Below are positions 2,811 through 23,434 of a DNA stretch of 56,925 bases, piece after piece; position 1 is the first letter of the stretch; each line of letters begins with the position of its first letter. Origin of the DNA: a bacterium HR35 (lineage in GTDB: Bacteria; Patescibacteriota; Minisyncoccia; UBA6257; HR35). The DNA lies in the NCBI GenBank assembly GCA_002898235.1, contig BEIL01000001.1:191041-247965 (forward strand), given 5' to 3'. The notes under the pieces were generated by a model, which saw nothing but the letters and a program-made list of their open reading frames with translations, was not told where the DNA came from and did not search any database. The position numbers and the translations under genes are program-made.

Positions 2811-3931
2811 TGACTTAAAAATTTAATTGGATCTAAATAGCCAAACTTATCTGGATTATCAGGAACATAACCATAACAATTTTTATATTCACCATTAATT
2901 AAACATTTTGCCATAAAAGGATTTTCTAAAACCGGCTTATTTTTAATCTCAAAATGTAAATGGATGTCTAATTTGCCTTTTTTATCACATCCATCTTCCC
3001 AGATTCTCCAATAATTACAACCATAACCAGTAGCACCAACTTTACCAATTATATCTCCCTTTTTAATAAAATCGCCTTCTTTTAAATTTTCTCTTATTTG
3101 AGCTAAATGGGCATAAAGAGAATAAATTTTTTTATCTTCAATTAAATGTTCAACAATTACTACATTTCCTAGTCCATGATCATTATATCCATTTTTAACT
3201 ATTTTAGCAATCCTACCATCATAAATATTATAAACATTTAAATCTTGAGCATCAGGATTAGGCGCTAAATCAACTCCAGCATGCTGAAGATAATCTACTC
3301 TTCTATCTTTACTATTCGACCAAGCAGTTCTTACAGGGCTATTAAATCTTTGTCTAATATAAAATTCATTTTTATTCACAGGAAGAACGAATTTTTTATT
3401 TAAAACAATATCATCTAAATCTTTATAAATAATTACTAAATCTCCGCTTTTTACTTTTCTAAAAAATTCTTGAGCTACCTTATTCCATAATCTAATACAA
3501 CCGCCAGTAAAATCAGTTCTTACTCTTTCTCCATTTAAGTAATAAGGAATTTCATGAATAAAAAAATCTTCATAAATTTGAACAGCATAATTCATATATA
3601 CTGGAAATAATGAAGAAATATGTTTTTCTTTTTTAACTCCAATCCGAAAATAACCTGTCGGTGTTTGATACCAAACTCCTTCTGGTGCTTGATAAGCAAT
3701 TGGAAAGACTTCTTTTAATTCACAATTTTCAAAAAAATAAATTTGGTTTTTAGATAAATTTATTTCCCAAACTCTAAATTCGCAAATTTTAGGTTTTATT
3801 TTATTAGTTGAAACTACACTTATTTTATTTTCTAAATTTATAAAGTAAACTCTCGGTAAAGTAGAAAAAAGTTTTATAACCCACAAAATCAAAATAAAAA
3901 CTATTGAAAGAAAAAGAATTTTAATTTTCAT
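2807..3931 (-). CDS. membrane-anchored L,D-transpeptidase (YkuD) fused to M23/LytM metallopeptidase
   Basis: N-terminal TM helix. YkuD catalytic motif FIHE...FTGGCIRL. M23 motifs HAGVDL, LYAHL and IHLHFEI. Confidence 0.8.
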   Translation of the reverse strand: MKIKILFLSIVFILILWVIKLFSTLPRVYFINLENKISVVSTNKIKPKICEFRVWEINLSKNQIYFFENCELKEVFPIAYQAPEGVWYQTPTGYFRIGVKKEKHISSLFPVYMNYAVQIYEDFFIHEIPYYLNGERVRTDFTGGCIRLWNKVAQEFFRKVKSGDLVIIYKDLDDIVLNKKFVLPVNKNEFYIRQRFNSPVRTAWSNSKDRRVDYLQHAGVDLAPNPDAQDLNVYNIYDGRIAKIVKNGYNDHGLGNVVIVEHLIEDKKIYSLYAHLAQIRENLKEGDFIKKGDIIGKVGATGYGCNYWRIWEDGCDKKGKLDIHLHFEIKNKPVLENPFMAKCLINGEYKNCYGYVPDNPDKFGYLDPIKFLSQ

Positions 3932-5356: not shown

Positions 5357-6271
5357 TTATAAATTATTTCTTAAAGAAACCAAACAACCTAAAAGAACAG
5401 ATAAATCACCGCCTTGAGCTTTTATTAGTTTTAAATTAATAGGCAAAGGATAAAAATTTTTTGTATATTTAATTAAGTTTTTAAAATTAAGAGCTTTAAT
5501 TAAGCTTCCGCCTAAAATAATTTTATCAACAGACCAAAAAATTGAAACATTAACTAAAAAGATTGCTAATATTTTACTCAAATCATCCCAAATTTTCTTA
5601 TCTTTTATTTCTTCTGGTTTTTTCTTAAAAATTTTTTCTAAACTTTTACCGCCAAAAAGTTCTTCAATTTCAAATGGCAAAATCTTGTTAGTTTTATTTT
5701 GAATCAAAATAAATGAATGTCCAGGTTCAAAACCAAAAACATTATCATCAAAATTTTTATTAACTATTTTCACTCCACCAATTCCTGTCCCTAAAGTTAT
5801 ATAACCGAAACTATTAAAATTCTTCCCTGCTCCAAAATATGCTTCTCCTAAACCAGCTAAAGCAGCGTCATTTTCTAAAACCACGGATGTACGCGGATTA
5901 TTATACGGATTAACGCGGATATTGTTTTTTAACACAAATAAACACTGATATAATATTTTTTCAAGGTCTTTTTTCAGATTTCTTCCAATATAATCTTTTA
6001 AGTTTGGAGCATAAATTAACTTTTCTTTCTTTTTATCAAATAAACCAGCAAAACCAAAACAAATTTTTAACGCAGAACCGCGCAAAACTGACGAGAAATT
6101 ATGCAAAATGTAATTTTTAATTAACTCCAAAAAATCTTCATATTTTTGAGGAGTATTAAAAATTTTAGTATTTTGCTTTAGTTTTTTATAAACTTGATTT
6201 GAACTTAAAGAAACTTTATCAATAAATGCTAATCTTGTTTTTGTTCCACCTATATCTCCTAAAAAGTACAT
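5357..6271 (-). CDS. ROK-family glucokinase/sugar kinase
   Basis: N-terminal GDIGGTKTRLA (ATP-binding), ENDAALAGLGE and GTGIGGV motifs. Confidence 0.75.
   Translation of the reverse strand: MYFLGDIGGTKTRLAFIDKVSLSSNQVYKKLKQNTKIFNTPQKYEDFLELIKNYILHNFSSVLRGSALKICFGFAGLFDKKKEKLIYAPNLKDYIGRNLKKDLEKILYQCLFVLKNNIRVNPYNNPRTSVVLENDAALAGLGEAYFGAGKNFNSFGYITLGTGIGGVKIVNKNFDDNVFGFEPGHSFILIQNKTNKILPFEIEELFGGKSLEKIFKKKPEEIKDKKIWDDLSKILAIFLVNVSIFWSVDKIILGGSLIKALNFKNLIKYTKNFYPLPINLKLIKAQGGDLSVLLGCLVSLRNNL
5883..5923. repeat. CG-containing short-unit repeat module inside the glucokinase CDS (in frame)
   Basis: Plus strand acggatgtacgcggattattatacggattaacgcggatatt. Coding sense is AATATCCGCGTTAATCCGTATAATAATCCGCGTACATCCGT, giving NIRVNPYNNPRTSV. 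It is near-identical to the murD module at 11844-11887. Confidence 0.8.
6070..6094. repeat. second CG-containing repeat unit inside the glucokinase CDS
   Basis: Plus strand acgcagaaccgcgcaaaactgacg (protein SSVLRGSALK). It contains the TCTGCGT-type unit on the coding strand (ggttctgcgttaaaa). Confidence 0.5.
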
Positions 6272-6707: not shown

Positions 6708-7127
6708 CTAATTTATTAAAAATAAATTTGTTATTTCATCAAATTCTCTTTTTACCTTATTTTTAAAAGCAAAAAACATTATTTCACAGGTAGGAAAAAC
6801 TATAAGTTCTTTTAAATGGCCTGAAATTGCTTTTAAACTTTTATCACCTAAAGTGGCATGAATATGTAAATAATGATGGTTTTCTTTTAAAGTTAAATTA
6901 CCAATTAAACTTCCAATCTCCATCTGCTTTTTTATTTCAAACCAATCATAATCTTTTTTCTTTTCATTATACCTTCCAATTAAACATTTTTTACTCGCAC
7001 CAATTCCATAAAAAAATCCCGAATTAATTTTGTATTTTTTAGCAAAATTTAATAAAGCAGTAAATAATTCTTCCTCAGGTTCAATTCTTAATAAAAATTG
7101 ATTTTGATTTATTCTTTTAATAATCAT
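6708..7127 (-). CDS. PPC/DUF296 domain protein (PD1-like DNA-binding fold)
   Basis: [14 protein letters not shown]...[10 protein letters not shown]...SGHL is the pattern typical of DUF296. A 4-nt overlap with dcd suggests an operon. Confidence 0.6.
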
Positions 7128-8956
7128 TTATCTACTTTTGGTAAAGTTATTCCTTTTTGACCTTGATATTTTCCTTTACGATCAGCATAAGAAATTTTAC
7201 ATGGTTCATCTGCTTCTAAAAAGATAACTTGGGCAATTCCCTCATTAGCATAAATTTTTGCTGGAAGTGGCGTTGTATTGGAAATTTCTATCGTGAAATG
7301 TCCCTCCCAACAATTGCTTGACCAACAAGGTTTACCATTTCTTCTTACATAAAGAGTATGATTAGGTACAGTGATGTCATAAACATAACCCTCGTAATAA
7401 AATTTTGAAAAGGAATGTTTGTAAATCTTAGGAGTTAAATTTGTTTTATTTATTCTAATCTTATAAGCTGGATAGTTAGATTTAATAAGATGTCCTTTTA
7501 GATATCTTTCTCTTTTTTCTTTCCCAACTTTTCTTATTATGCTTGTATAACCACATTTAAGTATTATTTCTTGCAGATCATCAGCTAATTTCTTAGAGCT
7601 AGTTGTGTAAGTTTGTGTCTGCAAGTTACCATCTCCCAACATCATAGCTTTAATCAAAATTTTTAATTGTTGGGGGCATAATTCTTTTATTTCTGTAGGA
7701 ATATATTTTTGATATGCGTGTCCGAATTGTTTTAAGTATAAACATAAAGATTTATTCAAAATAACAAAACCTTCTTTGGTCTCAAAAAACTTGAATGGTA
7801 ATTTCTTAAGCCATTTTTTAATTAAACTCTTTTTCTTACAATCAAAACAAGCTATCTTTACTACGTAATTTCCTTTTCTTTTATCAATATAAGCACTTCC
7901 TTCTGCTATCCATATACCAAAAAATCGAAGCCAATCATTCATCTTTATTTTAATCGGAGAAAAATAAATATTATTTAGAGCCTGAAGAGCTTCTCTTTTA
8001 ATATCCCAAATATAAATTTTATTAGCTCCAATCCTTCTCCTTAAATAAGAAACTTCTTTGGTTAGTAGTCTTTTTTCATAAAGACCATTTAAAATCTGAT
8101 TAAAAGTTCTATAAGAAAATTTATTGGGTAATGCTTTATAAAGCATCAAAGAGTTTACTTTTGTTTTAGTCGAATTCAAAACATCTAAAATATCTTTTTC
8201 TTTTCTATATCTTGAAAATAACTTTTCATCTAAAGCTTTTGGTAAATAAAAATATTCTACTCTCTTACCTTTCCATTTTGCATCTCTTTTTAATTCATAG
8301 TTATACTTACCGTATACATTTTTAGCTTTAATAAATTCAAAATAATTTCTCCATCTTTTCTTTACTAAAAGGAAATGATCTGGGGTTATAGCCAAATCAA
8401 TAACTTTATTTTTAATTTGAATTAATTCTCCCTTATATTTAAATCGATGAAATTTTAAGATTGGTTGATATTCTAATTCTCCTTTCGAATTTAGGGTGGC
8501 CACTGAATCGGTTTTCTTTAAATTTTTAAATTTTTTCCAACCATCTAAAGTTAAAACTTCCGTTTTATCATCATAACATGGTTCTCCAGGAGTTACATTA
8601 ACAATAATTCCGCAACGAGCATAAGTTGATTTACCCAAAACAATAGCTAAAACATTTCTCGGGATTCTAAAATATTCTACTGAACGAGCTAAAACAAATG
8701 AATTAGGAGGAATAATACAAAATTTACCTTTATGTTTGATAAAATATGTTTCTTTTGCATTTTTAGGATCAATAATTTCAGTTGGATAAGCATTATGAAA
8801 AATATAAAATTCATCAGCAACTCTCATATCATAACCATAACTTGAAAGTCCATAAGAAACTTTTCCTTTTTTAACAAGCTTTTCAACAAAAGGCTCAATC
8901 ATTTTATGCTTTCTTGCCATATGTTTTATCCATTCGTCATTTTTGATTCCAGCCAT
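7124..8956 (-). CDS. dcd: dCTP deaminase precursor carrying an intein
   Basis: Exteins aa 1-126 (...[15 protein letters not shown]...[14 protein letters not shown]) and aa 549-610 ([32 protein letters not shown]...) join to a 188-aa Dcd-like protein. Confidence 0.85.
7313..8578 (-). mobile_element. 422-aa intein with LAGLIDADG homing-endonuclease domain inside dcd
   Basis: It starts with Cys ([13 protein letters not shown]) and has ITPDH (block B). LAGLIDADG motifs are [11 protein letters not shown] and [12 protein letters not shown]. It ends [14 protein letters not shown]...WSSN, followed by a +1 Cys. Confidence 0.85.
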
Positions 8957-9418: not shown

Positions 9419-9453
9419 AAAAAAAGGGAGGTGGGTGGCCAGCCCCCTCCCTT
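9419..9453 (-). terminator. strong GC-rich hairpin followed by U7 on the minus strand (terminator of the SIMPL gene; possibly bidirectional)
   Basis: AAGGGAGGTGGGTGG (9424-9438) pairs with CCAGCCCCCTCCCTT (9439-9453) at 13 of 15 positions. The A-run at 9419-9425 gives the minus-strand T-run. Confidence 0.5.
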
Positions 9454-9581
9454 GTGGTTCTCCCCCTGCACACCTATATTCTTTTTTATTTTTTTTGGCC
9501 ATCCCCTCCTTTCGAGAGTTCTATTTTAAATTATACCATATTATAACATTTTAAATCAAGCCCTAAGAAATACCTTAATTT

Positions 9582-10298
9582 TTACCTTATTTCAAAAGTT
9601 ATATTTACTTGCACTTTAATTTCTTGGGAACCTGGTTCAACTTGAGGGGTTGTTTTTAATTCAAGCTTTTCTAAACCAAGAGTGTATAAAGGAATTACTT
9701 CGGGGGTTGATAATTCGTTAATGCTTATAATTTTTCCTAATTTAAATCCGGCGGTTTTGGCAATCTTATCGGCTTTTTCTTTAGCATCTAAAATTGCTCT
9801 TTCTCTTGCTTTTTCTAAATAAACTTTAGGTTCATCAATGGTAAAATTAGGCCCAGAAACATTATTAGCACCATTTTTAACTGCTCCTTCAAGTATTTCA
9901 CCAATTTTAGATAAATCTCTAATCTTAACCACTAAATTTTGACTAATTGTATAGCCAACAATTTTATAAGGAGAAAGCGTGTAATCATATTTAGGAGTAA
10001 TTGAATAATTTTCTGTTTTAATGTCTTTCTCATTAATGCCTTGAGCTTTAAGAAAGTTTATAATTTTATTCATCTTGTCAGAGTTCTCTTGTTGTAAAGT
10101 TTTTAAATCACTACCTTCAGTAATAACACCAATTCTTATTTCAGCGATATTCGGAACAGCAATTTCTTTTCCTTCACCAGTAACTGAAAATGTTCTTTGG
10201 GGTTGATGAATATTTTTATATTCATAAACAAACCAGAAACAAGCTACAATAAACAAAAACAAGCTAATAATTATTGAATTTCTTAAAGTTTTATCCAT
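9582..10298 (-). CDS. SIMPL/DUF541 domain periplasmic protein
   Basis: N-terminal TM helix, then FSVTGEGKEIAVPNIAEIRIGV and a C-terminal EPGSQEIKVQVNITFEI pattern typical of DUF541. Confidence 0.7.
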   Translation of the reverse strand: MDKTLRNSIIISLFLFIVACFWFVYEYKNIHQPQRTFSVTGEGKEIAVPNIAEIRIGVITEGSDLKTLQQENSDKMNKIINFLKAQGINEKDIKTENYSITPKYDYTLSPYKIVGYTISQNLVVKIRDLSKIGEILEGAVKNGANNVSGPNFTIDEPKVYLEKARERAILDAKEKADKIAKTAGFKLGKIISINELSTPEVIPLYTLGLEKLELKTTPQVEPGSQEIKVQVNITFEIR

Positions 10299-10445
10299 TG
10301 TTTTATTATAACAAAAAAATTTTAATAAATATACTGGTGCTGAAACAATTAATAATGAAAGCGATCTTTATATTCTTCAACCAACGCCTTTAATTAATTT
10401 AGAAATTGTTGATAAATTTAAAAATAAAAACTTTGAGGAAAAAAT

Positions 10446-12110
10446 TTATACTTGGCAAAATTGACGAATATACTTATTAAATTTTTTACCTCGATCAAAT
10501 TCATTTTTAAATTTTTCAAAGGAAGCTGAAGCCGGAGAAAAAAGAATAACTACGGATTCATACGGATTATTAAACGGATAAACGCTGATTCTTTTTTTGT
10601 AAACGGATAAACGCTGATTATTATAAAGATGAAAATAAGATTTGTATTGATTTAAAATCCTAAAAACTATTTTTTTTAAATCTTCAAAAATATTTTCTTC
10701 TTTTATGGGGTATTTTAATTTTTTTAGTTCATCAATTAATTTTTTTGTTGCACTTCCGTTAAGTAAAAATAAATTTTCTGGCTTAATTTTATTTTTTATT
10801 TCTTTAGCCAATTCTTTAAAATCTAAATTTTTATCCGTTCCACCAGTGATTAAAATTAAGTTCTGCCCGAATCTTCTTATTGCCGCTATTGTAGCATCAG
10901 GAGTTGTTGCTGCTGAATCATTAACTATGATTAAATTTTTATTTTGATAAACTATTTCTTGACGAAATGGTGGAGTTTTAAGTTTAAAAATTTGTTTTTG
11001 AAGATATTTTTTAAATTTTTCAATATTTAAGCTTTTATCCTTTAAATAAAGATAAACAGCTAAAACAGCAAACAAAAGATTATAAACATTATGTTCACCA
11101 TAAATTTCTCGAAAATATGTTATGTCTGCGTTAGTCTGCGTATCGAAAATTTCAATGTCTTTTTCATCTCGAATTATCAAATTATTATTTTTAATAAATG
11201 CTCCTTTTAAATTTTTAGGTAACGGTTTTAAAGAAACAAAATAAACTTGGCTTTTTGGTTTTAATTTAAGAAAAAATTTTGTCCATTGGTTATCATAATT
11301 TAAGATAAGATAATCATCTTTTTTTTGATTAATAAATATATTAGCTTTAGCTTTAGCATATTCTTCCATATTTTCATAGCGATTTAAATGATCTCTCAAA
11401 AGACAAGTAATAATAGCAATTTTCGGTGCCTTTAAATTTTGAGTATAAAACTCTAACTGAAAAGAGGAAAGCTCTAAAACACTAACAGAATTTTCTTTTG
11501 TTTTATCAAGAATTTTTAATAAACCCTTATCAGGTTGATTTCCTCCTAAAAGAATATTTTTTTTATTTAATCTGCGTAAGTCTGCATCAAATCTGCGGAA
11601 GTCTGCGTTTTTCAACAATTCATAAATCCAAGTTGTTGTCGTTGTTTTTCCTCTTGTGCCAGTAATAGCAATAATATCACCTTTAGCATATTTAAAAAAC
11701 AAATAACAATCATTAACAACTTCTTTATTTTTACTTAAAGCATATTTAACTAATTCATTTTTATAACTTACACCAGGATTAACAGCAATAATATCAGCCC
11801 AATCAATATCTTCTTTGCGGTGTTTGCCTAAAATGTATCTAACTACGGATTTACGCGGATAATTATTACGTGGATTAACGCGGATATTTTCTTTAGATAA
11901 GGATTTATATTGGCTTAATATGGAACTTGAATTAATAAATTTATTGAGTTTATCAATCGATTTTTTAAGCTCTTTTTTTGTTTTCAAATCAGTAACTCTT
12001 AATTTTGCTCCTTTTTTAAAAAACCACTTTGCAGTTGCTAGTCCACCACCTAAAACCCCTAATCCTAAAATCAAAACTTTTTTATTTTTTAAACTATAAC
12101 TATTTTTCAT
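10446..12110 (-). CDS. murD: UDP-N-acetylmuramoylalanine--D-glutamate ligase with four in-frame repeat-derived insertions
   Basis: VLILGLGVLGGG (Rossmann-like N-domain), ITGTRGKTTTT (P-loop), NDSAATTPDA, and C-terminal SPASASFEKFKNEFDRGKKF. Confidence 0.85.
   Translation of the reverse strand: MKNSYSLKNKKVLILGLGVLGGGLATAKWFFKKGAKLRVTDLKTKKELKKSIDKLNKFINSSSILSQYKSLSKENIRVNPRNNYPRKSVVRYILGKHRKEDIDWADIIAVNPGVSYKNELVKYALSKNKEVVNDCYLFFKYAKGDIIAITGTRGKTTTTTWIYELLKNADFRRFDADLRRLNKKNILLGGNQPDKGLLKILDKTKENSVSVLELSSFQLEFYTQNLKAPKIAIITCLLRDHLNRYENMEEYAKAKANIFINQKKDDYLILNYDNQWTKFFLKLKPKSQVYFVSLKPLPKNLKGAFIKNNNLIIRDEKDIEIFDTQTNADITYFREIYGEHNVYNLLFAVLAVYLYLKDKSLNIEKFKKYLQKQIFKLKTPPFRQEIVYQNKNLIIVNDSAATTPDATIAAIRRFGQNLILITGGTDKNLDFKELAKEIKNKIKPENLFLLNGSATKKLIDELKKLKYPIKEENIFEDLKKIVFRILNQYKSYFHLYNNQRLSVYKKRISVYPFNNPYESVVILFSPASASFEKFKNEFDRGKKFNKYIRQFCQV
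10551..10619. repeat. repeat module in the murD 3' region, including an exact 20-nt direct repeat
   Basis: TAAACGGATAAACGCTGATT occurs at 10571-10590 and 10600-10619, preceded by tacggattcatacggatta. The protein reads NNQRLSVYKKRISVYPFNNPYESVV. Confidence 0.85.
11123..11142. repeat. TCTGCGT-type repeat pair inside murD
   Basis: Plus strand tgtctgcgttagtctgcgta. The protein reads TQTNAD. Confidence 0.6.
11569..11608. repeat. four tandem A(A/G)TCTGC(G/A)-type units inside murD
   Basis: Plus strand aatctgcgtaagtctgcatcaaatctgcggaagtctgcgt. The protein reads NADFRRFDADLRR, inserted just after the P-loop helix. Confidence 0.8.
11844..11887. repeat. ATCCGCGT-type repeat module inside murD
   Basis: Plus strand tacggatttacgcggataattattacgtggattaacgcggatat. 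The protein reads NIRVNPRNNYPRKSVV. It is homologous to the glucokinase module at 5883-5923. Confidence 0.85.
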
Positions 12111-12122
12111 TTTTTATCTTTC

Positions 12123-13226
12123 TTAAAAATCACTTTTTATAATTTTATCCCTCAAAATTTTATATTTTAAGAAGAAATTCAAATCAATTTTTGAACTCTT
12201 TAAAAATTTTATAAAATTTTTTAACTCTTTATCTATATTCTTTTTATTATTAAAATAAATTTGCCAATGCATAAAAGGATTTCCACTTGTAAGTCGAGTA
12301 GTTGTTTTAAATCCTGTTCCACTATAATTTAAGCTTTTTTTATTTGTTTCATAAGCATAAGCAAAGAGCAAAGCTGAAATTAGAAAAACTAAATGAGAAA
12401 CTTTAGCAACTATTTTATCGTGTTCAGCTGGAGATAATAATTTTGGTTTTGCTCCTAAAAATTTAACTAAATTTTTTATTTTATTGATTGTTAGTTTTTT
12501 ATTTTTAGAATGAGGTGTTATTATCCAGGGATAATTAATGAAGAGGGTTGCTTTAGAAAATAAAAAGCCACTTTTATCAGAACCAGCCATAGGATGAGTT
12601 GCTAAAAACTCTAACTTATCATCAGTCAATCTTTCAAATTCTAAAGCAATTTTTTCTTTAACACTTCCAACATCAATTACTATTAATTTTTTGTCAAAGA
12701 TTAGATTCTTCTTTATTTCATAAGCCCAAGGAATTATATGTTCTATTGGAGTTGCCAAAACAATTAAGTCGCTTTTAAAAATTAATTCTTTTAAATCATA
12801 AACTTTATCAATTATTTTTTCTTTTAATGCTTCTTTTATATCTTTATCGTCTCTTTTTATTGAAAAAACATTTAGATTCTTATCTTTCAATTTTAAAGCT
12901 TTAGCCATCGAGCCACCAATAATCCCTAAACCAATTATGCCTATATTTTTAAAATCTAATTGAGGAAATCTAAAAAATGATCTTTGTTTTTTGCTTAAAG
13001 TAAAAATATTACTATAGATTTCCCAAATGTTTTCTTTTAAAAAATCATTTTGAGCTATTCTTTTTAAGTTATTGATAATTTCTTCTTCTCTTCTGGAGGA
13101 AGTCAAACTTAGCTTTCTCTTTTCTTTAACTTTATTTATTTTCTCGACTAACAAAATTCTTTTCTCTAAAAACTTTATTATTTTTTTATCTATTTTATCT
13201 ATTTTTTTTCTTAGCGATTTGATCAT
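12123..13226 (-). CDS. tyrA: bifunctional chorismate mutase / prephenate dehydrogenase
   Basis: N-terminal AroQ-type helices (LRKKIDKIDKKIIKFLEKRILLVEKINKVK), then IGIIGLGIIGGS (NAD fold) and ATHPMAGS. Confidence 0.75.
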   Translation of the reverse strand: MIKSLRKKIDKIDKKIIKFLEKRILLVEKINKVKEKRKLSLTSSRREEEIINNLKRIAQNDFLKENIWEIYSNIFTLSKKQRSFFRFPQLDFKNIGIIGLGIIGGSMAKALKLKDKNLNVFSIKRDDKDIKEALKEKIIDKVYDLKELIFKSDLIVLATPIEHIIPWAYEIKKNLIFDKKLIVIDVGSVKEKIALEFERLTDDKLEFLATHPMAGSDKSGFLFSKATLFINYPWIITPHSKNKKLTINKIKNLVKFLGAKPKLLSPAEHDKIVAKVSHLVFLISALLFAYAYETNKKSLNYSGTGFKTTTRLTSGNPFMHWQIYFNNKKNIDKELKNFIKFLKSSKIDLNFFLKYKILRDKIIKSDF

Positions 13227-14083
13227 TTTATAAATTTTCCTTTTGAATAGAATCCTAATATCTTAACTTCTTCGGCTACTTTTTTAAATTCTTTTATTAC
13301 CTTTAAAATCTCATTTAATTTTTTCCCAACAAAATCAAAATCTAAATAAAAAATATATTCAAAGGGTTTTCCGATTATTGGTCTTGATTCAATTTTAGTC
13401 AAATTAATTTTATTTTCAGCAAAAGGCTGAAGAGCGCGATAAAGACTTCCCGGTCGATGAGGAAGTTTAAAAATCAGAGAGCATTTATCAGGATTATTTA
13501 ATCTCATATTTCTGTTATTTCTGGTAATTACTAAGAATCTAGTGTAGTTGTTTTTATCATCTTCTATGTGTCTTAAAATTATATCAAGATTATAAATCTT
13601 AGCAGCTAATTCACTAGCAATTGCTCCCAAAGAAGGGTTTTTTTGTTCGCTCACAAATTTAGCTGCTCCGGCAGTGTCACTGAAACTTACTTTTTCTATC
13701 CAAGGATGTTTTTCGAAAAATTTATTACATTGTTCTAAAGCTTTTGGGTGAGAGTAAACTTTTTTAATAAGTTTTAATCTCTTTCTCTTAGAAATATTTT
13801 TTAATTTAATCGCCAAAAGATTATGGATAATTCTTAAATAAATTTCACCAACAACTTTAATTGGATATTTATTTAACAAATCGTAATTTTCATAAATAGA
13901 TCCAGCAATTGAATTTTCAATAGGAATTATTCCAAAATCAGCCTTGTTTTTATCAATCAATTCAAATATTTCTTTAAAAGTTTCAGTTCCAATAAATTTA
14001 TTTTTGTTTCCAAAAAATTTTATCCCTGCAAGATAACTAAAAGAACCAGGTATTCCTTGATAGACTATTTTTTTAATTAACAT
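13223..14083 (-). CDS. pheA: prephenate dehydratase (PDT plus ACT domains)
   Basis: YQGIPGSFSY, NYTRFLVI and ESRP motifs. Confidence 0.85.
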   Translation of the reverse strand: MLIKKIVYQGIPGSFSYLAGIKFFGNKNKFIGTETFKEIFELIDKNKADFGIIPIENSIAGSIYENYDLLNKYPIKVVGEIYLRIIHNLLAIKLKNISKRKRLKLIKKVYSHPKALEQCNKFFEKHPWIEKVSFSDTAGAAKFVSEQKNPSLGAIASELAAKIYNLDIILRHIEDDKNNYTRFLVITRNNRNMRLNNPDKCSLIFKLPHRPGSLYRALQPFAENKINLTKIESRPIIGKPFEYIFYLDFDFVGKKLNEILKVIKEFKKVAEEVKILGFYSKGKFIK

Positions 14084-14139
14084 TGATTACTGAGCTCTAT
14101 TTACAAAAATAAGTTTTGTTTTAATTATATAATAAAGAT

Positions 14140-14937
14140 ATGAAAATTTACATCGGAACTTCGGGTTGGCAGTATTATCATTGGAGAGGAAAATTTTACC
14201 CTGAAAATTTAGATTCTAAGAATTTTTTAAAATTCTATTCAAAACATTTCAATACCGTTGAAATCAATACTAGTTTTTACCATTTAACTAAAAAAACGAC
14301 TTTTGAAAAATGGAAAAATGAAATCTCCGACCTACGCAGAAAAAATAAAAACGATTTTCTTTTTGCGGTTAAACTTTATCGACTTTTTACTCATTTAAGA
14401 AGATTAAAACTTAAAAAAGAAGATGAAAAAACTTTGAAAACTTTTTTAGAAAATGTCTCGGCTTTAAAAGAAAATTTAGGACCAATCTTAATTCAATTAC
14501 CTCCAAGCTTCAAAGATAAAGAGGTTTTAAAAAAATTTATTAAAAAATTTAAAACTATTATTAAAAATGTTTTTAAAAATAGATTACCCCTTATTGCTCT
14601 TGAAATTAGAAATAAAAATTTACTCACTAAAGATGTTTATAATTTTTTAAGAAAAGAAAAAATCATTTTTGTTATTTCTGATTCTCCTCGTTGGCCAACT
14701 GATTTTGTTAAAACAACTGATATAGTTTATGTTAGATTTCATGGCAAACCAATTCTTTTTGCTTCAAAATACTCAAAAAAAGAATTAAAAAAATATGCTG
14801 AAAAAATTAAAAAATTAAAACCAAAAGTTTTATTTGCCTATTTTAATAATGACGCCGAGGGTTATGCGATAGAAAATGCTTTAGAATTTAATAAAATTAT
14901 TATTAGCAATGATAAAAAAAGAAACAAGAGGACATAG
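14140..14937 (+). CDS. DUF72 (YecE-like) family protein
   Basis: IYIGTSGWQYYHWRGKFYP...FNTVEINTSFY...ILIQLPPSF...YVRFHG are DUF72 hallmarks. Confidence 0.8.
   Translation: MKIYIGTSGWQYYHWRGKFYPENLDSKNFLKFYSKHFNTVEINTSFYHLTKKTTFEKWKNEISDLRRKNKNDFLFAVKLYRLFTHLRRLKLKKEDEKTLKTFLENVSALKENLGPILIQLPPSFKDKEVLKKFIKKFKTIIKNVFKNRLPLIALEIRNKNLLTKDVYNFLRKEKIIFVISDSPRWPTDFVKTTDIVYVRFHGKPILFASKYSKKELKKYAEKIKKLKPKVLFAYFNNDAEGYAIENALEFNKIIISNDKKRNKRT
14322..14340. repeat. single CG-containing repeat unit inside the DUF72 CDS
   Basis: aatctccgacctacgcaga (protein ISDLRRKNKN). Compare gacttacgcagattaaat, giving DLRRLNKKN, in murD. Confidence 0.45.
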
Positions 14938-15235
14938 TGATTACCAAATAAATATTTTAGAAATTGCTAGAAGAAAAAACTTTGATGAAAATTATGTGAG
15001 AAATATATTAGATTTAAGAAGGAATATTTTTAATAATATAGGAAATAACCAAGAGCTTTTTAACGAATTCTTTAAACGTCTTAACCAATTAACTGAGATG
15101 CTAGGTCCTGAAGAGTGTCAAAAATATTTAGCTTGGCATATTGCTGTTGGTAGTACTCCAGATGAAAATTTAATTCAATTTTTAGATTTTGAAGGTGAAG
15201 ATAATATCCAAAATTTATTAAAAAGTTTTCCTTAA
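14909..15235 (+). CDS. hypothetical protein
   Basis: ORF only. It overlaps the DUF72 3' end by 29 nt. No motifs recognised. Confidence 0.4.
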   Translation: MIKKETRGHSDYQINILEIARRKNFDENYVRNILDLRRNIFNNIGNNQELFNEFFKRLNQLTEMLGPEECQKYLAWHIAVGSTPDENLIQFLDFEGEDNIQNLLKSFP

Positions 15236-16072
15236 GAGTAATTTTATTTTCCTATAATCAGCTCCTTTTCTTATTATTTTTATTTCTTTTTGAGTTAAAT
15301 CAATTAAAGTCGAAGCTTCGCTAGCAATTTTTCCTCTATCAAGATAAAAAACTTTATCATTGAAATATTTTTTAGCTTCTTTTATTGTTTTTGCTGGTTC
15401 ATATCCTTCCCAATTGGCTGAAGGAGCAATAAGTGGTCCTGATACTTTTAAAATTTTTAAAATAAATTTATCTTTAGGAAGTCTAAAAGCTAAAGTATTT
15501 GTTCCGCGATGAAGATAAGAAAATTTTTTCGATTGACAAGGTAAAATAACACTGATTTTAGCAGGCCAAATTTTTTCTAAAATATTTTTTTGCCAATTTT
15601 TAAGTTTAACACCAAAAAGTTTCAATTCTTTAATATCTGAAATCAAAATTATACAAGGTTTTTTAAGATTTCTTTTCCTTAACTTATAAACTTTTTCTAC
15701 TGATTTTTTATTAAAAGCTGAAGTACAGATTCCATAAATTGTATCAGTTGGAATAACTCCAATTGCTCCTTCTTTTAAAAGTAAAGCTGCTTTCAACCAA
15801 TCTAAATCTTCTCTTCCCAAATAACCACCAACAGTATAATCACTTTTAATTACTCGATGGCAAAGAACATTTTTATCTTTATTTCTCATCATCAGATTTC
15901 CAACAACTCTAAAAGCTTTTTCTTTACCCGCTAATTTGGCAACTTGTTTATAAGTTAAAAATTTTCCTGAAGGAATTTTTTTAACTACTTTTATTACTCT
16001 ATCTTTAAATTTATCTATAATCACCAGAGCCATGAATCTTATTTCTTTTTTTACGATCAAAAATTTTTTCAA
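15218..16072 (-). CDS. fusion of an MGMT/Ogt-like DNA-binding methyltransferase domain and L-threonylcarbamoyladenylate synthase (TsaC/YrdC)
   Basis: N-terminal half: IPSGKFLTYKQVAKLAGKEKAFRVVGNLMMRN...VLCHRVI...GGY...LLLKEG, the MGMT fold with Cys retained. C-terminal half: GVIPTDTIYGICTSAFN...KLRKRNLKKPCIILI, the YrdC domain. The start may be Met at 16033. Confidence 0.7.
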   Translation of the reverse strand: MKKFLIVKKEIRFMALVIIDKFKDRVIKVVKKIPSGKFLTYKQVAKLAGKEKAFRVVGNLMMRNKDKNVLCHRVIKSDYTVGGYLGREDLDWLKAALLLKEGAIGVIPTDTIYGICTSAFNKKSVEKVYKLRKRNLKKPCIILISDIKELKLFGVKLKNWQKNILEKIWPAKISVILPCQSKKFSYLHRGTNTLAFRLPKDKFILKILKVSGPLIAPSANWEGYEPAKTIKEAKKYFNDKVFYLDRGKIASEASTLIDLTQKEIKIIRKGADYRKIKLLLRKTF

Positions 16073-19956: not shown

Positions 19957-22089
19957 ATGAAAATTTCAGTTATTATACCTGCTTATAACGAAGAAAAAGG
20001 AATTGAAAGTACTATTAAAAGAATACCTAAAGAGGTTTTTGAGATTATAGTTGTCGATAATAATTCAGCTGATAAAACTGCTGAAATTGCTAAAAAATTA
20101 GGTGCTAAGGTTATTAAAGAAACAAAACAAGGATATGGCTATGCTCTGCAAAAAGGTTTTAAAACTGCTCAAGGTGATATTATTGTAACTTTAGATGCTG
20201 ACGGTCAATATCCAGGAGAAAAAATTTTAGAATTGGTTGATTATTTAATTAAAAATGATTTAGATTTTTTAAATTGTTCTCGCTTTCCTTTACAAAATAA
20301 AAACTCACTTCCTTTTACCAGAATTTTAGGTAATTATTTTTTAACTTTTCTTACTAAAATTCTCTTTGGACTTAAAACAAATGACTCTCAATCAGGAATG
20401 ATGATTTTCAAAAAAGAAATTTTAAACAAAATTAAACTTGAATCTGGTGATATGCCATTATCACAAGAATTAAAAATTAAAACTTATCTTGCTGGTTTTA
20501 AATATGGCGAAGTAAATATTCCTTATTATCCTCGTCAAGGAGAATCAAAACTTTTCCCTTTAAAACATGGAATTAAAAATTCAAAATCATTAATAGAATT
20601 AAAATTAAAGCATCTTCACCCTTTATTTTTACCAATTGTTAGTTTAATTTTTATCATTTTTATTTATTCATTTTTAGCTTCATTTAATCTTAATAAGCAA
20701 TTTATTAATGTCACATCAGATGTTAATGGTGAAAATGGCTTAGCTGTTATAAACTGGTTAAATGCAGGTATCTTTAATTTAAAGCTTGGCAAATATGTAA
20801 ATGGCTATTTAGAAAATAAAGATTCTCTAAAACAAATAAACCCTAAAGATTTTTACACTCACCATCCGGTTTTCTATCTTTTACCTACTTATTTTCTTTA
20901 CAAAATTTTTGGCATTTCAGAAATAACAACTCGTGGTGGTATATTTTTAATGTTTTTAATAAGCATCATCTTTTTATTCTTTGCTCTCCAAAAAATTTTT
21001 AACAATCTTTTTTATAGTTTTCTTACAACTTTAATTTTTATTTTGCTTCCTGGAACTGTCTATTATGGCACAACTTTCGAATTAGCAGTTTTTTCTTTGC
21101 CTACTGCTTTAATAACTTTTTCTCTTTTTATCTTTTATTATTTCTCTAAAAAACAAATTTATTTCTATTTTCTTTTAGCTTCAATATTTTTAGGTGGATC
21201 AATGGGATGGTTTTATTTCTTTATGCCAGCTTCTATTTGGGTTTATTTACTCTTTGATAAAAACAAAAACTTTATCAAAGAAAGAAAAATTTTGTTAATA
21301 ACTTTACCTTTAGTTTCGACTTTAATTTTTTCTTTTAATTTGTTACATATCTATCTTCTTAAAAGAACTTATGGATTTCAAGATTTAAAAGAAGCTTTTC
21401 TTTATAGATCCCAAAGAGCACCATTTTATAACTGGCTTCAAGTAATTTATATGAGGATGCAACTTAATTTTAATGATTTGTTTTTATGGTTAGGTGTCCT
21501 TGGTTTCTTTTTATATTTTCTTGTTTATTTCAAAAAATGTAAAATCATTTCACCTTTATTTTTAATGCCAATTTTTAATACAATGGTTTTTTATCAATGG
21601 AGCACTCACCCTTTTGGAGTTGTTTTCTTTTTACCAATAGTAGCTATTTTTGTAAGTTTATTTTTAATTTTTATTTATGAAAGATTCAAAACTTACGGAT
21701 TGATTTTTGCTTTATTAATTATTTTAATCGGAGGAATTTTTTCTTACAAAAGATTAGATTATTTTATTAATAAGTTTTTAATTTTAGGACCTAACGATGT
21801 TGCAACTTTAAAAAATTTAAAGAATCAAGTGAATAATAATGAAATATGTTTAGGCCAAAATCAAATGGGTTTATATTATGGAGGAATAGTTATGTGGTAT
21901 TTAAGAAAAAATATTTACTTTTCTCCTGACTGCTTGGACGATGTAAATAAATTTAAAAATCTAAAATTAGCAATTATTTTCAATCCTCAACTCGGTCAAT
22001 TTTATTTAGATGAAGCTAATAAGTTTATAAGTAAAGGATTTAAACCAATAGGTTGCTCTGATTTATGGTGTTATTTATCTAAACAATGA
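19957..22089 (+). CDS. GT2 glycosyltransferase (dolichyl/polyprenyl-phosphate sugar synthase-like) fused to a large polytopic membrane domain
   Basis: ISVIIPAYNEE...VVDNNSADKT...TLDADGQYP is GT-A/GT2. About 480 aa with at least 10 hydrophobic helices follow, reminiscent of GT-C/ArnT-like transferases; that resemblance is not verifiable here. Confidence 0.7.
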   Translation: MKISVIIPAYNEEKGIESTIKRIPKEVFEIIVVDNNSADKTAEIAKKLGAKVIKETKQGYGYALQKGFKTAQGDIIVTLDADGQYPGEKILELVDYLIKNDLDFLNCSRFPLQNKNSLPFTRILGNYFLTFLTKILFGLKTNDSQSGMMIFKKEILNKIKLESGDMPLSQELKIKTYLAGFKYGEVNIPYYPRQGESKLFPLKHGIKNSKSLIELKLKHLHPLFLPIVSLIFIIFIYSFLASFNLNKQFINVTSDVNGENGLAVINWLNAGIFNLKLGKYVNGYLENKDSLKQINPKDFYTHHPVFYLLPTYFLYKIFGISEITTRGGIFLMFLISIIFLFFALQKIFNNLFYSFLTTLIFILLPGTVYYGTTFELAVFSLPTALITFSLFIFYYFSKKQIYFYFLLASIFLGGSMGWFYFFMPASIWVYLLFDKNKNFIKERKILLITLPLVSTLIFSFNLLHIYLLKRTYGFQDLKEAFLYRSQRAPFYNWLQVIYMRMQLNFNDLFLWLGVLGFFLYFLVYFKKCKIISPLFLMPIFNTMVFYQWSTHPFGVVFFLPIVAIFVSLFLIFIYERFKTYGLIFALLIILIGGIFSYKRLDYFINKFLILGPNDVATLKNLKNQVNNNEICLGQNQMGLYYGGIVMWYLRKNIYFSPDCLDDVNKFKNLKLAIIFNPQLGQFYLDEANKFISKGFKPIGCSDLWCYLSKQ

Positions 22090-22466
22090 TCGATGATTTT
22101 AAAAAATTTTTAATTTACGGCATTGGCGGTGGTTTTGGATTTTTAACTACTTTTTCATTAACTATTTTCCTAACTGAAAAATTAAAATTTTATTATTTAA
22201 TTTCAGCAATTATAGGTTATTTAGGTGGAATTTTTATTAATTTTATTTTTCAAGCTTTTATCACTTTTAAAACAAAAGAAAAATTGTTTTTATTAAGATT
22301 TATTAAATTTTTATTTTTCCAACTTTTAGGCTTAACACTTTATTCAATTTTGATGTTTTTCTTTACTGATATTTTAAAAATTTATTATGTTATTTCTCTG
22401 TTTCTTTCAACAGGCATTGTTTATATTATTAACTTTACTCTTGCTAAAAATTTTGTTTTTAAATAA
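22086..22466 (+). CDS. GtrA-like membrane protein
   Basis: 126 aa with 4 TM helices, ending NFTLAKNFVF (typical of GtrA family). A 4-nt overlap with the GT2 fusion. Confidence 0.65.
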   Translation: MIDDFKKFLIYGIGGGFGFLTTFSLTIFLTEKLKFYYLISAIIGYLGGIFINFIFQAFITFKTKEKLFLLRFIKFLFFQLLGLTLYSILMFFFTDILKIYYVISLFLSTGIVYIINFTLAKNFVFK

Positions 22467-22565
22467 AGATTTTTTAATATATTATCCAACATTTAACCAT
22501 TCTTATAATAAAATATAAGTGTGGTTGAGTTGTTTTTAATTAAAAACGAAGTATTTTTTCGAACT

Positions 22566-22750
22566 ATGAATAAAGCCAAAGAACTACAAGAAAAAATTTT
22601 TAAGAAGATGACGCCACAACAAAAATTAAAATTATGAGCAGGTCTTTTTTATTAGCCAGAGAATTAGTCGGTGAAAAATTAATTTATTATGATGAAGAAA
22701 TTAGAAGACCCAAGAAAATTACTCGTAGAAATAGTAAAAATCTTGGATAA
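22566..22750 (+). pseudogene. possible frameshifted remnant of a small gene
   Basis: MNKAKELQEKIFKKMTPQQKLKL stops. The reading continues in another frame as SRSFLLARELVGEKLIYYDEEIRRPKKITRRNSKNLG. Confidence 0.25.
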
Positions 22751-22785
22751 ATTGGTAAAAAACGTCTTTAATTAGTTTATTTCTA

Positions 22786-22813
22786 TTTCTAAATTTCTTA
22801 AGAAATTAAGAAA
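22786..22813. repeat. 28-bp palindrome copy 1 (overlaps the stop codon and 3' end of the ArsR-type gene)
   Basis: tttctaaatttcttaagaaattaagaaa. Confidence 0.85.
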
Positions 22814-23108
22814 TCAAATTTGGTAAAATTTTAAGAACGTTTTGGCTTAATGGCGAAAGACGAAAATAAACTATAAGCCCATCCCTTCTTTTATGAACTA
22901 AACCACCTAAAACAAGTCTTCTCATATGCTCAGCAATGGTTTTATAGTCTTTATTAAAAGCATCAGCAATTTCTCCTAATGACATTTCTTCTTTATCTTG
23001 AAGCAAAAGCAAAATTTTTATTCTCTGATGATTAGCCAAAGCTTTAGCTATTTTTTCAATCTGAAATATTTCTTTACCTGTCAATTTCATATAATAATTA
23101 TAATTCAA
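22806..23108 (-). CDS. ArsR/SmtB-family winged-helix transcriptional regulator
   Basis: LANHQRIKILLLLQDKEEMSLGEIADAFNKDYKTIAEHMRRLVLGGLVHKRRDG. The start may be the second Met at 23090. Confidence 0.75.
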   Translation of the reverse strand: MNYNYYMKLTGKEIFQIEKIAKALANHQRIKILLLLQDKEEMSLGEIADAFNKDYKTIAEHMRRLVLGGLVHKRRDGLIVYFRLSPLSQNVLKILPNLIS

Positions 23109-23124
23109 AACTCAAAAATTTAAA

Positions 23125-23152
23125 TTTCTGAATTTCTTAAGAAATTTAGAAA
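23125..23152. repeat. 28-bp palindrome copy 2, likely operator 17 nt upstream of the ArsR-type gene
   Basis: tttctgaatttcttaagaaatttagaaa. Confidence 0.85.
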
Positions 23153-23241
23153 ATGAAAATTAAAAAATAAATCTTAAAAAATATAAAATTTTAGCGGTTA
23201 TTTTTATATAAGATATGGCAGAAATTTTAATAGCCTTGTAT

Positions 23242-23269
23242 TTTCTAATTTTCTTAAGAAATTGAGAAA
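23242..23269. repeat. 28-bp palindrome copy 3
   Basis: tttctaattttcttaagaaattgagaaa. Confidence 0.85.
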
Positions 23270-23332
23270 TTAAAATGACAAAAATTTGGAAAATATAAAT
23301 TAGTAATAATAAAAGAATTAAGAAGGAGGATG

Positions 23333-23360
23333 TTTCTGAATTTCTTAAGAAATTGAGAAA
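23333..23360. repeat. 28-bp palindrome copy 4 (followed by an extra ttgagaaattgaatt half-site echo)
   Basis: tttctgaatttcttaagaaattgagaaa. Confidence 0.85.
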
Positions 23361-23434
23361 TTGAGAAATTGAATTAGCAGAAGTTTTAAGAGAATAGTTT
23401 TGAAAAGTAGTACGCTATATTGAGATTGAATTAT

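Follow-up and report, generated by a model that had tools for sequence, protein, structure and literature searches.

The question raised by this locus is why a murD gene in a strongly AT-biased genome of a Parcubacteria-type (CPR) lineage encodes a protein of 554 amino acids when solved MurD chains have 437-459, and what the CG-rich segments within it are. We analyzed a stretch of 56,925 nt (the window), for which a first-pass annotation had described four CG-rich islands in murD and had assigned to them the surplus of the protein over the 438 aa of Escherichia coli MurD. The sequences of the islands read exactly as given there, and comparison with solved MurD structures and insert-free orthologues, all of which lack these segments, shows all four to be insertions. 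Compared with one insert-free orthologue, which has 487 aa, the islands contribute 82 extra aa, so part of the surplus over E. coli MurD lies outside them and is ordinary lineage-specific length. The product matched Pfam Mur_ligase_M (3e-31) and MurD-like_N (1e-9), its best PDB sequence matches were all MurD, and residues G151, K155, T156, D240, H241, R383, and D398 fall in invariant alignment columns. An AF2 model (mean pLDDT 87.6) gave a Foldseek TM of 0.8 to E. coli MurD 2uag. Judged by its sequence, this product, with a three-domain Mur ligase fold, a MurD-type N domain, the P-loop, and the catalytic invariants, is a MurD. The gene sits outside any dcw cluster.

The islands and the other arrays of the window are listed in Table 1. 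An exact 20-mer, TAAACGGATAAACGCTGATT, occurs at 10571 and again at 10600, a 29-nt period, and the two copies are read in different codon phases (ISVYPF for the first, QRLSVY for the second); likewise, within island 1 the unit ATCCGCGT is translated both as I-R-V and as Y-P-R-K. Both observations had been made in the first-pass annotation, which took the changes of frame to argue for a nucleotide-level element. We agree that the repeat is a DNA-level one; the rotation of frame, on the other hand, is an automatic consequence of the 10-nt period, and the full modules are all read in one frame. TRF found period-10 arrays in murD at 11119-11141 and 11571-11607, the 10- and 11-nt spacings of the latter array (11570..11608) alternating to give a 21-nt superperiod. 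The three top repeat-finder families of the window are the module copies described below, with MurD-1 recovered in families D1/D3 and MurD-C aligned to the ROK copy in family D2 (76% identity, 71 nt).

Table 1. Host genes, module copies, and arrays in the window
Feature	Position	Strand	Units and support	Translation and AF2 confidence
ROK-family sugar kinase ORF	5357..6271	minus	Pfam ROK 2e-19	304 aa
Module copy ROK	5875..5934	+	~55 nt; nhmmer E 6e-18	NNIRVNPYNNPRTSVV
Degenerate array	6069..6095	+	ACGCAGAA-type units; common to window, L171, L172	SSVLRGSALK
murD ORF (UDP-N-acetylmuramoylalanine--D-glutamate ligase)	10446..12110	minus	intact; P-loop and invariant residues kept	554 aa
Module copy MurD-C	10545..10603	+	ACGGAT/ACGCTGAT units; nhmmer E 4e-16	RISVYPFNNPYESVV, aa ~507-521; pLDDT 42-61 at aa 491-520
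Partial duplicate of MurD-C right end	10600..10621	+	holds second 20-mer copy, offset 29 nt	QRLSVY
Two-unit array	11124..11141	minus (gene sense)	ACGCAGACTAACGCAGAC; TRF period 10	TQTNAD, aa 324-329; pLDDT falls to 79 at aa 321-330
Four-unit array	11570..11608	minus (gene sense)	ACGCAGAC/CCGCAGAT/ATGCAGAC/ACGCAGAT; TRF period 10	NADFRRFDADLRR, aa 168-180; pLDDT 67 at aa 171-180
Module copy MurD-1	11838..11899	+ (antisense to gene)	ACGGAT/ACGCGGAT/ACGTGGAT units; nhmmer E 3e-16	NIRVNPRNNYPRKSVV, aa 75-90; pLDDT 61-63 across aa 71-90

The repeat unit is 10-11 nt long and consists of a CG-containing core, ACGCRGAY (reverse complement RTCYGCGT), plus 2-3 A/T bases. It occurs in both orientations, the ORF is always preserved, and the insertions fall between conserved Mur-ligase blocks, all as first proposed. 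Six arrays of at least two units were counted in the window, where Markov-simulated sequence would give 0.02, for a pattern picked after viewing the data; the islands were also detected by a motif-free detector. The inserts are 18-60 nt in length, and all 7 arrays are confined to two genes. The second of these, a neighboring gene, encodes an ROK kinase longer than typical members of its family (~265-270 aa, from homologue lengths). A module of ~55 nt is common to these two unrelated genes: the three full copies (MurD-1, MurD-C, and ROK) are homologous, with nhmmer E values of 1e-16 to 1e-18, and the exact 17-mer GGATTAACGCGGATATT is shared by the ROK copy and MurD-1. All three are translated in one common frame, which for both MurD copies is the sole stop-free frame in gene orientation. 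The degenerate array at 6069..6095 falls where most ROK homologues are gapped, and we regard it as older than the module copy in the same gene. Whichever frame is read, tandem ATCCGCGTAA encodes the cyclic decapeptide IRVNPRKSA*, and its reverse complement gives LRGFTRIYAD or LRRFTQIYAD; the peptides of inserts in either orientation are accounted for by these translations.

Some candidate identities were set aside. Pairing between islands 1 and 2, judged by eye, was dropped on account of C·A mismatches on the mRNA strand. DnaA boxes (TTATCCACA resembles TTATCCGCG) do not fit, and neither do MraZ repeat boxes, which are direct repeats of 10-nt period near dcw genes; the occurrence of ATCTGCGT variants, the placement within genes, and the range of unrelated genes and phyla speak against both.

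Comparison with relatives showed that the arrays come and go. In a murD codon alignment of the window with two relatives, L001 (85% identity over aligned MurD columns) and L004, arrays were gained, lost, and resized: two were present only in L001, one (11124..11141) only in the window, the site at 11570..11608 held 2 of the 21-nt repeats in the window and 3 in L001, and L004 had none at all. At the MurD-1 site L001 carried an GTCTGCGT-type array instead. The site orthologous to the ROK copy contained 2 units in L171, 4 in the window, and ~10 in L172, the last a long composite with both orientations. The unit variant tracks the genome, not the site: at sites that correspond, it was ATCCGCGT in the window and in the L171 ROK gene and GTCTGCGT in L001/L172, where 22/32 units contained CGCAGAC. 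Further copies were found in several unrelated genes of relatives, namely those for a PGA_cap/DUF192 protein, a YkuD-M23 peptidase, a DUF72 protein, ArgRS, and MnmA, and in one intergenic spacer; an insert-free related genome had 0 arrays in 21 kb. Across 120 relatives MurD length rose with repeat-vocabulary content (Spearman 0.77, p 4e-25). Some inserts were kept in orthologues whose identity to the window MurD is only ~50-58% each, and such persistence indicates that the inserts are not necessarily harmless junk.

For the codon test the inserts were defined by alignment gaps and the motif was not consulted, a motif-based definition being circular. GC3 was 0.28-0.37 in the inserts versus 0.13-0.17 in the core (p 1e-22), Arg was encoded by CGN in 47/63 insert codons versus 28/86 core codons (p 5e-7), and Arg and His were 3-fold enriched in the inserts. 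We concluded that the inserts carry a foreign, GC-rich codon composition. In the AF2 model all four islands were coil, with block pLDDT of 42-79 against the much higher model mean, and outside them low confidence was limited to residues 1-10 and a dip at aa 531-540. The predicted placement in surface loops, which the first-pass annotation had wanted checked, is supported by low-pLDDT coil at exactly the four islands of the model. The islands are predicted to add floppy loops between the secondary-structure elements of an otherwise intact MurD.

We consider it likely that the islands represent a short DNA repeat, present in dispersed copies, that landed inside protein-coding genes of this CPR lineage. 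New copies would arise via copy-and-paste or recombination acting on DNA, and existing arrays would lengthen or shorten by replication slippage, to which the differences of one 21-nt repeat, or of 2, 4, and ~10 units, point. Purifying selection on essential genes would then spare only stop-free insertions of a multiple of three in permissive loops; such selection would produce recurrent hot spots, the single frame common to the three modules, and the alternating 10-/11-nt spacings (21 nt = 7 codons) that several coding arrays show. The conservation of frame and the lack of stop codons suggest that the inserts would be translated into basic, disordered surface loops tolerated by the enzyme. A Rickettsia guanylate kinase that carries a Rickettsia palindromic element (RPE) is translated and active (PMC2229807). 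The element here is most likely selfish or neutral, not useful to the host. Its dispersal throughout this organism's genome is extrapolated from ~100 kb of relatives. Among the 58 ORFs of the window, which covers 57 kb of the genome, none matched a transposase, integrase, or RAYT (the IS200/IS605-type tyrosine transposase that mobilizes REPs). As to the two marks of a MITE, the window copies had no terminal inverted repeats, and alignment of filled and empty sites with relatives gave no clear target-site duplication, the AT-rich flanks being ambiguous. We also observed that murD is far more array-laden than its neighbors, something not accounted for by a selfish element that acts purely at random; the excess is due in part to shared ancestry of old insertions and to the gene having been picked by the first-pass annotation.

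The first-pass annotation had spoken of CPR genomes; one correction to it is that the unit is not CPR-specific. In scans conditioned on the motif the ACGCRGAY core was seen in Cyanobacteria, Chloroflexi, Spirochaetes, Omnitrophota, Patescibacteria, and phages. Outside CPR the decamer arrays were mostly non-coding, with some inverted hairpin pairs, and Nostocales were rich in them; some phage contigs had several co-oriented arrays, many outside long ORFs and with conserved flanks. In a viral collection ACGCRGAY was ~4-fold commoner than scrambled-core controls, and the real core alone was dispersed within contigs. A metagenome scan with a pattern fitting all three module copies gave 5 matches, 0 from this lineage; no Rfam family covered seven loci with hairpin-type arrays, Pfam and NCBIfam returned only noise on idealized array translations, and full-text literature searches (sequence words, CPR with repeats, RPE) found these arrays nowhere described. 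Decamer arrays in genes thus seem undescribed for the CPR group. We raise tentatively, as a doubtful extension, that an uncatalogued family of decamer arrays, with an ACGCRGAY core at helical period, may span many bacterial phyla and phages, the murD islands being its form within coding regions. Arrays of that putative family are often inverted, forming long hairpins. If the extension were true, the shared core would imply a conserved trans-acting partner (a binding protein or mobilizing enzyme), gene-dense Parcubacteria would leave the element no room except genes, and protein length would change rapidly, with MurD up to ~40% longer.

The same observations bear on a different possibility, that the arrays serve as DNA or RNA sites with a function of their own inside genes: phased binding sites for a nucleoid protein, regulator, or phage protein, uptake-type signals, or groups of rare CGN/GCG/CCG codons at domain boundaries, where they would slow translation. 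The array period equals the DNA helical repeat, and a period of 10-11 nt puts every core on the same helix face. The occurrence of the core in many phyla, the operator-like or regulatory look of the phage arrays, and the excess and dispersal of the real core over its scrambled controls would all fit such sites, with the reservation that the motif itself was the condition of the scans across phyla and that a motif common to phyla speaks against a species-specific uptake signal. Homogenization of the unit variant per genome looks as if the unit co-evolved with a reader protein, but no binding protein was found, and although rare codons are abundant in the inserts, the in-gene positions are scattered and both orientations are present. 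Close relatives, moreover, drop arrays without apparent consequence, and a related genome has none in 21 kb. We therefore judge functional sites to be an unlikely explanation.

Selection on the peptide, with Arg/His/Ser/Pro-rich loops binding nucleic acid, membrane, or a partner and the DNA likeness a by-product, would explain why the three full modules give the same peptide in the same frame, why Arg and His are enriched, and why some inserts, for example NADLRRLDADLRRL at aa ~226, are retained at one site in many orthologues. The common frame, however, is for both MurD copies the only one open in gene orientation. Opposite orientations of the same DNA are both used and code for unrelated peptides (IRVNPRKSA vs ADLRRFTQI), the duplicated 20-mer is translated in two phases, and the codons are GC-rich despite the bias of the genome. 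Orthologous sites hold differing peptides, differing lengths, or nothing, and the inserts are predicted to be disordered. For these reasons peptide-level selection seems to us quite improbable.

The whole-unit differences in copy number would also be expected of purely local micro- or minisatellite expansion, by independent slippage from a native seed at each site and with no movement between loci. Unit-like native sequence does exist at some sites: K-S-V/I precedes ILFSP at the C-terminal site, L004 has AATATC at site 1, and RRF stands ahead of the aa ~417 site. Local expansion does not, however, give two genes a specific ~55-nt module in which an exact 17-mer and the order of the unit variants agree, nor a parallel shift of the unit variant at two loci in L001/L172, and a CG-rich 8-mer core at many sites in genomes of 25-27% GC is not expected by chance; we hold it to be highly improbable. 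Last, we give almost no credence to an artefact (mis-assembly or chimeric reads) or to removal before the mature protein (intron, intein, or translational bypass), which the compositional conspicuousness of the islands and the rRNA-gene insertions for which CPR genomes are known (PMC9698310) might suggest, since an independent Logan assembly matches the locus perfectly across 3142 nt, homologous inserts occur in dozens of separately assembled relatives (JGI, ENA, NCBI, Logan), the inserts are far below the size of known self-splicing elements, and every one is a multiple of three and stop-free in the host frame with stops in other frames, a constraint that makes sense only if the inserts are translated.

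A dispersed DNA repeat landing in genes, the reading that we prefer, would extend selfish DNA within coding genes, best known from Rickettsia, to CPR, with a much smaller modular unit, and would explain how housekeeping orthologues come to differ by up to 200 residues in streamlined genomes. It would matter for annotation, orthology calling, structure prediction, and the trimming of phylogenetic alignments in CPR, and it would provide natural maps of where loops accept insertions, both in the antibiotic target MurD and in other enzymes. The 10.5-nt period, the homogenization of units within a genome, and the core common to phyla and phages could indicate an unknown DNA-handling activity.

Several known systems invite comparison. 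VNTRs or minisatellites share the head-to-tail units (TRF period 10) and a copy number that varies between relatives, but a unit and a 55-nt module common to several loci and genes go beyond a single-locus category. The low-complexity inserts of Plasmodium falciparum are similar in that DNA repeat dynamics in an AT-rich genome yield disordered, non-conserved segments between conserved housekeeping blocks; those inserts are AT-rich, homopolymer-like, and in line with the genome bias, whereas ours are GC-rich against the bias, with a defined unit across loci. The DNA uptake sequences (DUS/USS) of Neisseria and Pasteurellaceae are single, family-specific 9-12-mers linked to competence, over-represented throughout the genome and often in inverted pairs that act as terminators. 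Here too a short motif is over-represented and, in genes, limited to permissive positions and frames; the likeness rests on over-representation, and tandem arrays and a core in many phyla set our element apart. Heterocyst-forming cyanobacteria reportedly harbor mobile-looking repeats of ~20-30 nt without coding capacity, found within other sequences (Elhai et al. 2008, Genome Res; mentioned in PMC3116915). These are likewise very small and non-coding, and Nostocales share the ACGCRGAY arrays, which, in a comparison by description, makes them a lead; their descriptions mention neither decamer arrays nor insertion in frame into proteins.

The REPs of the GTAG/CGTC super-families (Di Nocera et al. 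2013, PMC3733652) are short repeats that several phyla carry within the ORFs of known proteins. Intragenic REPs are sometimes clustered, encode 43-82 aa, and often occupy the same site in orthologues, and CGTC REPs have no dedicated transposase (PMC3733652). Our arrays are also short repeats in ORFs; the MurD-1 and MurD-C modules, two of the three in the window, end ...AATCCGTAG (CCGTAG) in gene sense, and some cross-phylum hairpins terminate in GCGTC. This resemblance in the tags is partial, the ROK copy having GTGG, and possibly due to chance. No RAYT was seen in the window, and each REP is an individual 20-40-bp stem-loop with a 5-13-bp stem (PMC3733652), in contrast to non-palindromic direct arrays. 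In Nematomorpha mitochondria, inverted repeats lie in frame within coding sequence (PMC6649704).

The analogy drawn at the outset was to the RPEs, palindromic elements of 105-146 bp inserted in frame in conserved genes (Ogata et al. 2000, Science 290:347; reviewed in PMC2229807), and with respect to the effect on genes it stood, though not with respect to structure. The RPE is a single palindrome with terminal inverted repeats, whereas the unit here is a 10-11-nt direct repeat and the window inserts, of 18-60 nt, are one-armed, non-palindromic, and non-folding (z of -1.6, -0.9, +0.2, and -0.1 vs shuffles). In addition, our arrays vary by whole units, with the variant homogenized per genome, and belong to another host phylum, the comparison being one by description only. 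What the two share is considerable: dispersed repeats of non-coding type, in frame within conserved essential genes of a reduced genome, with no associated transposase (for our arrays, none in the window), tolerated at permissive positions, which for our arrays are predicted to be at the surface, and varying among related genomes. In-gene copies of the relatives L131 and L005 even form inverted pairs that fold as strong hairpins (z of -3.6 and -2.6 vs shuffles), as does one intergenic inverted pair (z of -4.8 vs shuffles). We conclude that the murD islands are RPE-like in effect, yet stand outside the RPE family.

The first-pass annotation had described four CG-rich islands within murD, and their coordinates and translations were confirmed in the sequence (see table). 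Among solved structures, the best matches to the window MurD were without exception MurD chains, 437-459 aa long. CpG is depleted in the window, whose GC content is 27%, and arrays of at least two units were observed six times where 0.02 were expected from simulated sequence, for a pattern picked post hoc from the data. The island places were also recovered by a motif-free detector, by Tandem Repeats Finder and by a generic repeat finder, whose three top families were these island copies. The islands are not an assembly artefact, a source refuted by a contig in the Logan assembly of run DRR101367 that is identical over 3142 nt to window positions 9446-12587 and by the homologous inserts present in many independently assembled relatives.

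Features carrying or forming the repeat arrays in the window and in L171, a contig from a relative
Feature	Position	Strand	Remarks
ROK-family kinase gene	5357-6271	minus	carries island near-identical to MurD modules
ROK module copy	5875-5934		in ROK gene; encodes NNIRVNPYNNPRTSVV
Older degenerate array	6069-6095		in ROK gene; common to two relatives
murD ORF	10446-12110	minus	554 aa; matches Mur_ligase_M and MurD-like_N
MurD island	aa 75-90		NIRVNPRNNYPRKSVV
MurD island	aa 168-180		NADFRRFDADLRR
MurD island	aa 324-329		TQTNAD
20-mer TAAACGGATAAACGCTGATT, two copies	10571 and 10600		29-nt offset
L171 (KatS3mg096 Parcubacteria genome), array-bearing gene	13990-15795	minus	arrays in arginyl-tRNA synthetase gene
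L171, array-bearing gene	20368-20879	minus	arrays in MnmA-like gene
L171, array	3428-3470		directly 3' of stop codon of Laminin_G_3-domain gene

The repeat unit, 10-11 nt long, has the core ACGCRGAY (or ACGGAT, when shortened) and then two or three A/T bases. ACGCRGAY reads on the plus strand, antisense to murD, at 11838-11899 and 10545-10621, and on the minus strand, in the murD sense, at 11570-11608 and 11124-11141. A tandem of ATCCGCGTAA gives IRVNPRKSA* from any starting frame, while the complementary strand reads LRGFTRIYAD (LRRFTQIYAD in the ATCTGCGT variant); as a tandem 10-nt unit crosses all three frames per 30 nt, the island peptides in both orientations are accounted for. The earlier remark that one repeat is read in different frames therefore holds in that the phases do differ, as in the two TAAACGGATAAACGCTGATT copies because of their offset, but the frame change is inherent in a 10-nt unit. 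Alternation of 10 and 11 nt, frequent in coding arrays, amounts to 21 nt or 7 codons, and thus spacer TAA or TAG triplets stay out of frame.

A single module of ~55-60 nt is present three times, as alignable copies in ROK, MurD-1 (11838-11899) and MurD-C (10545-10603), and the exact 17-mer GGATTAACGCGGATATT occurs in both the ROK copy and MurD-1. A profile of these three modules recovered each at E values of 1e-16 to 1e-18 and gave no further strong match in the whole window. The reading frame is identical in all three modules, as would be expected of a selected peptide; however, the other two sense frames of both MurD copies contain stops, so the shared frame is explained by a stop-codon filter and peptide selection is not needed. 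A long-selected peptide in an AT-biased genome would be expected to drift to AGA and AT-ending codons. When inserts were defined solely by alignment gaps against an insert-free orthologue, their GC content was 0.31-0.42 versus 0.25-0.27 for the core, their GC3 0.28-0.37 versus 0.13-0.17 (p 1e-22), and CGN accounted for 47 of 63 Arg codons versus 28 of 86 (p 5e-7). This codon composition, the two orientations, the phase-shifted 20-mer and the turnover at orthologous sites agree, and together they support the first-pass proposal that the islands are a DNA-level element.

That turnover was apparent among full-length MurD relatives, which ranged from 474 to 684 aa at 46-73% identity in local BLASTP alignments and, when aligned, carried inserts at about six recurrent sites with a vocabulary of NADLRRLDADLRRL, TADERGFKHGLTRID, NPRKSALYPRLSV and NPYRSVLNPYISV. 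The more repeat-derived 4-mers a MurD contained, the longer it tended to be (Spearman 0.77, p 4e-25). We compared the murD DNA of the window with that of L001, the closest relative, and of L004, which is without inserts; arrays had been gained, lost or resized, bearing out the presence/absence polymorphism sought in orthologous murD genes. Three sites (1, 2 and C-terminal) were filled in the window and L001 and differed in unit variant or copy number (three 21-nt repeats at site 2 in L001 versus two in the window); in this comparison arrays at aa ~226 and ~417 occurred only in L001, the TQTNAD array only in the window, and none at the compared sites in L004. At the ROK site the window carried 4 units and L171 carried 2, and in L172, another relative's contig, the site was filled by a long composite with units in both orientations. 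The unit variant tracked the genome: ATCCGCGT-type units filled both the ROK site and MurD site 1 in the window, and the ROK site in L171; in L001/L172 both sites were of the GTCTGCGT type, and CGCAGAC was present in 22 of the 32 units. In ~100 kb of relatives' DNA, other array hosts were a PGA_cap/DUF192 protein, a YkuD-M23 peptidase, DUF72, ArgRS, MnmA and one spacer; the genome with the insert-free MurD had no arrays in 21 kb. In the window, murD is heavily loaded and MurG and FtsW are without arrays.

Further insert families occupied the same MurD hot spots (MurD orthologues P0019, P0025, P0029, P0041, P0048, P0065, P0083 and others; L005 10534-10574), with different cores and the same ~10.5-nt period, for example IYPNNRPNRLPESSDRIFGHNSGKVFGQNSGR (ATTCGG-type units) and PGYQPDxTPGLKPDISGDHPGK (CCGGAT-type units). 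A dCTP deaminase-like gene at 7124-8956 (minus) encodes 610 aa versus 188 aa in orthologues of four relatives; the additional segment has a match to LAGLIDADG_3 and a weak one to Intein_splicing and is probably an intein that includes a homing endonuclease, which would give the window an in-frame insertion of a second and classical type. An ORF at 54649-56220 (plus, 523 aa) carries at its C terminus a Peptidase_S74 domain (chaperone of endosialidase) like those of phage tail fibres, and contains three copies of GGCAACGTCGGCATCGGGAC(A/G)AC near 54787-55329, a coding repeat unrelated to the decamer arrays. Toxin-antitoxin-type genes lie at 31590-31859 and 32889-33566 (minus; a ParE-like toxin and a HepT-like/nucleotidyltransferase pair), and a large glycosyltransferase/methyltransferase cluster at 19957-31514 (GT2, GT4, FkbM-type methyltransferases, GtrA), syntenic with parts of the relatives' contigs L005 and L131, is without arrays.

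An AlphaFold2 model of MurD (58-sequence alignment; mean pLDDT 87.6, pTM 0.88) superposed on E. coli MurD with TM 0.8. Its main low-confidence blocks, aa 71-90, 171-180, 321-330 and 491-520, are all coil and all at islands, so that each of the four islands is predicted to lie in a poorly ordered segment; elsewhere, confidence was low only over the N-terminal ten residues and in a dip at aa 531-540. The invariant residues, among them the P-loop, are intact. Every insert has a length that is a multiple of three and is stop-free in the host frame, a constraint that only makes sense if the inserts are translated, as we infer they are.

The three-unit pattern occurred at at least 120 loci in species-representative genomes, versus about one expected in random sequence by our estimate. 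Among the matches listed, the taxa included Nostocales, Anaerolineae, Treponema, Acidobacteriota, Omnitrophota, Betaproteobacteria, Bacteroides and several Patescibacteria; the period was mostly a strict 10 nt, 29 of 130 arrays had an opposite-orientation partner at most 150 nt away, giving a long hairpin, and 8 of 54 loci below 50% GC lay in a long open frame, several of these 8 in Patescibacteria. Among relatives of the window, inverted pairs both within and between genes gave strong folds (z -2.6 to -4.8), unlike the copies in the window itself (z -1.6 to +0.2). A viral collection had 37 loci, and on some of its contigs five or six copies were dispersed in one orientation with conserved flanks; three scrambled-core controls gave 11, 5 and 10 loci, with no multi-copy matches dispersed along one contig. 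By these controls the core is moderately but genuinely over-represented. The arrays had no name in Rfam, Pfam, NCBIfam or a literature search, and we think it rather doubtful that the cross-phylum arrays are one family with a common trans-acting partner. On the IMG/VR phage contigs L143, L156, L138 and L162 (62-64% GC), three to six ACGCRGAY arrays are dispersed in a common orientation and have conserved flanks (...GGATCGGAAG/GGAACGC...); many of these arrays are outside long ORFs, and they look like putative repeated regulatory or binding sites. In a Candidatus Omnitrophota MAG, one hairpin-type element with the conserved flank GCCAATTTAAGAA... on different contigs, L023 and L049, is like a dispersed miniature element.

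The repeats in the window and its relatives are dispersed at the DNA level, with fast whole-unit turnover and genome-specific unit variants that are homogenised within a genome, and only ORF-preserving insertions in loops are retained. We propose that new sites would be seeded by some copy-and-paste or recombination process, that slippage may alter array length, and that selection would let pass only in-frame, stop-free insertions at permissive loops. None of the 58 window ORFs encodes a transposase, integrase or RAYT (the transposase of REPs, short stem-loop repeats), and filled and empty murD sites in the window, L001 and L004 showed no clear target duplication. Two modules terminate in ...CCGTAG, and GTAG is the tag of GTAG REPs, which are cleaved by RAYTs (PMC3733652); as the ROK copy deviates, with GTGG instead, this link is only a lead. 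The analogy with Rickettsia palindromic elements (RPEs) drawn in the first pass stands for the effect, the in-frame fusion of selfish repeats with conserved genes, and translation and activity are established for at least one enzyme that bears an RPE (PMC2229807); however, RPEs are 105-146 bp long and palindromic whereas the window copies are neither, which places the element outside the RPE family. Intragenic REPs are documented in several phyla (PMC3733652) but are individual small stem-loops, whereas the element described here is a decamer array inserted in frame in housekeeping genes of the candidate phyla radiation (CPR).
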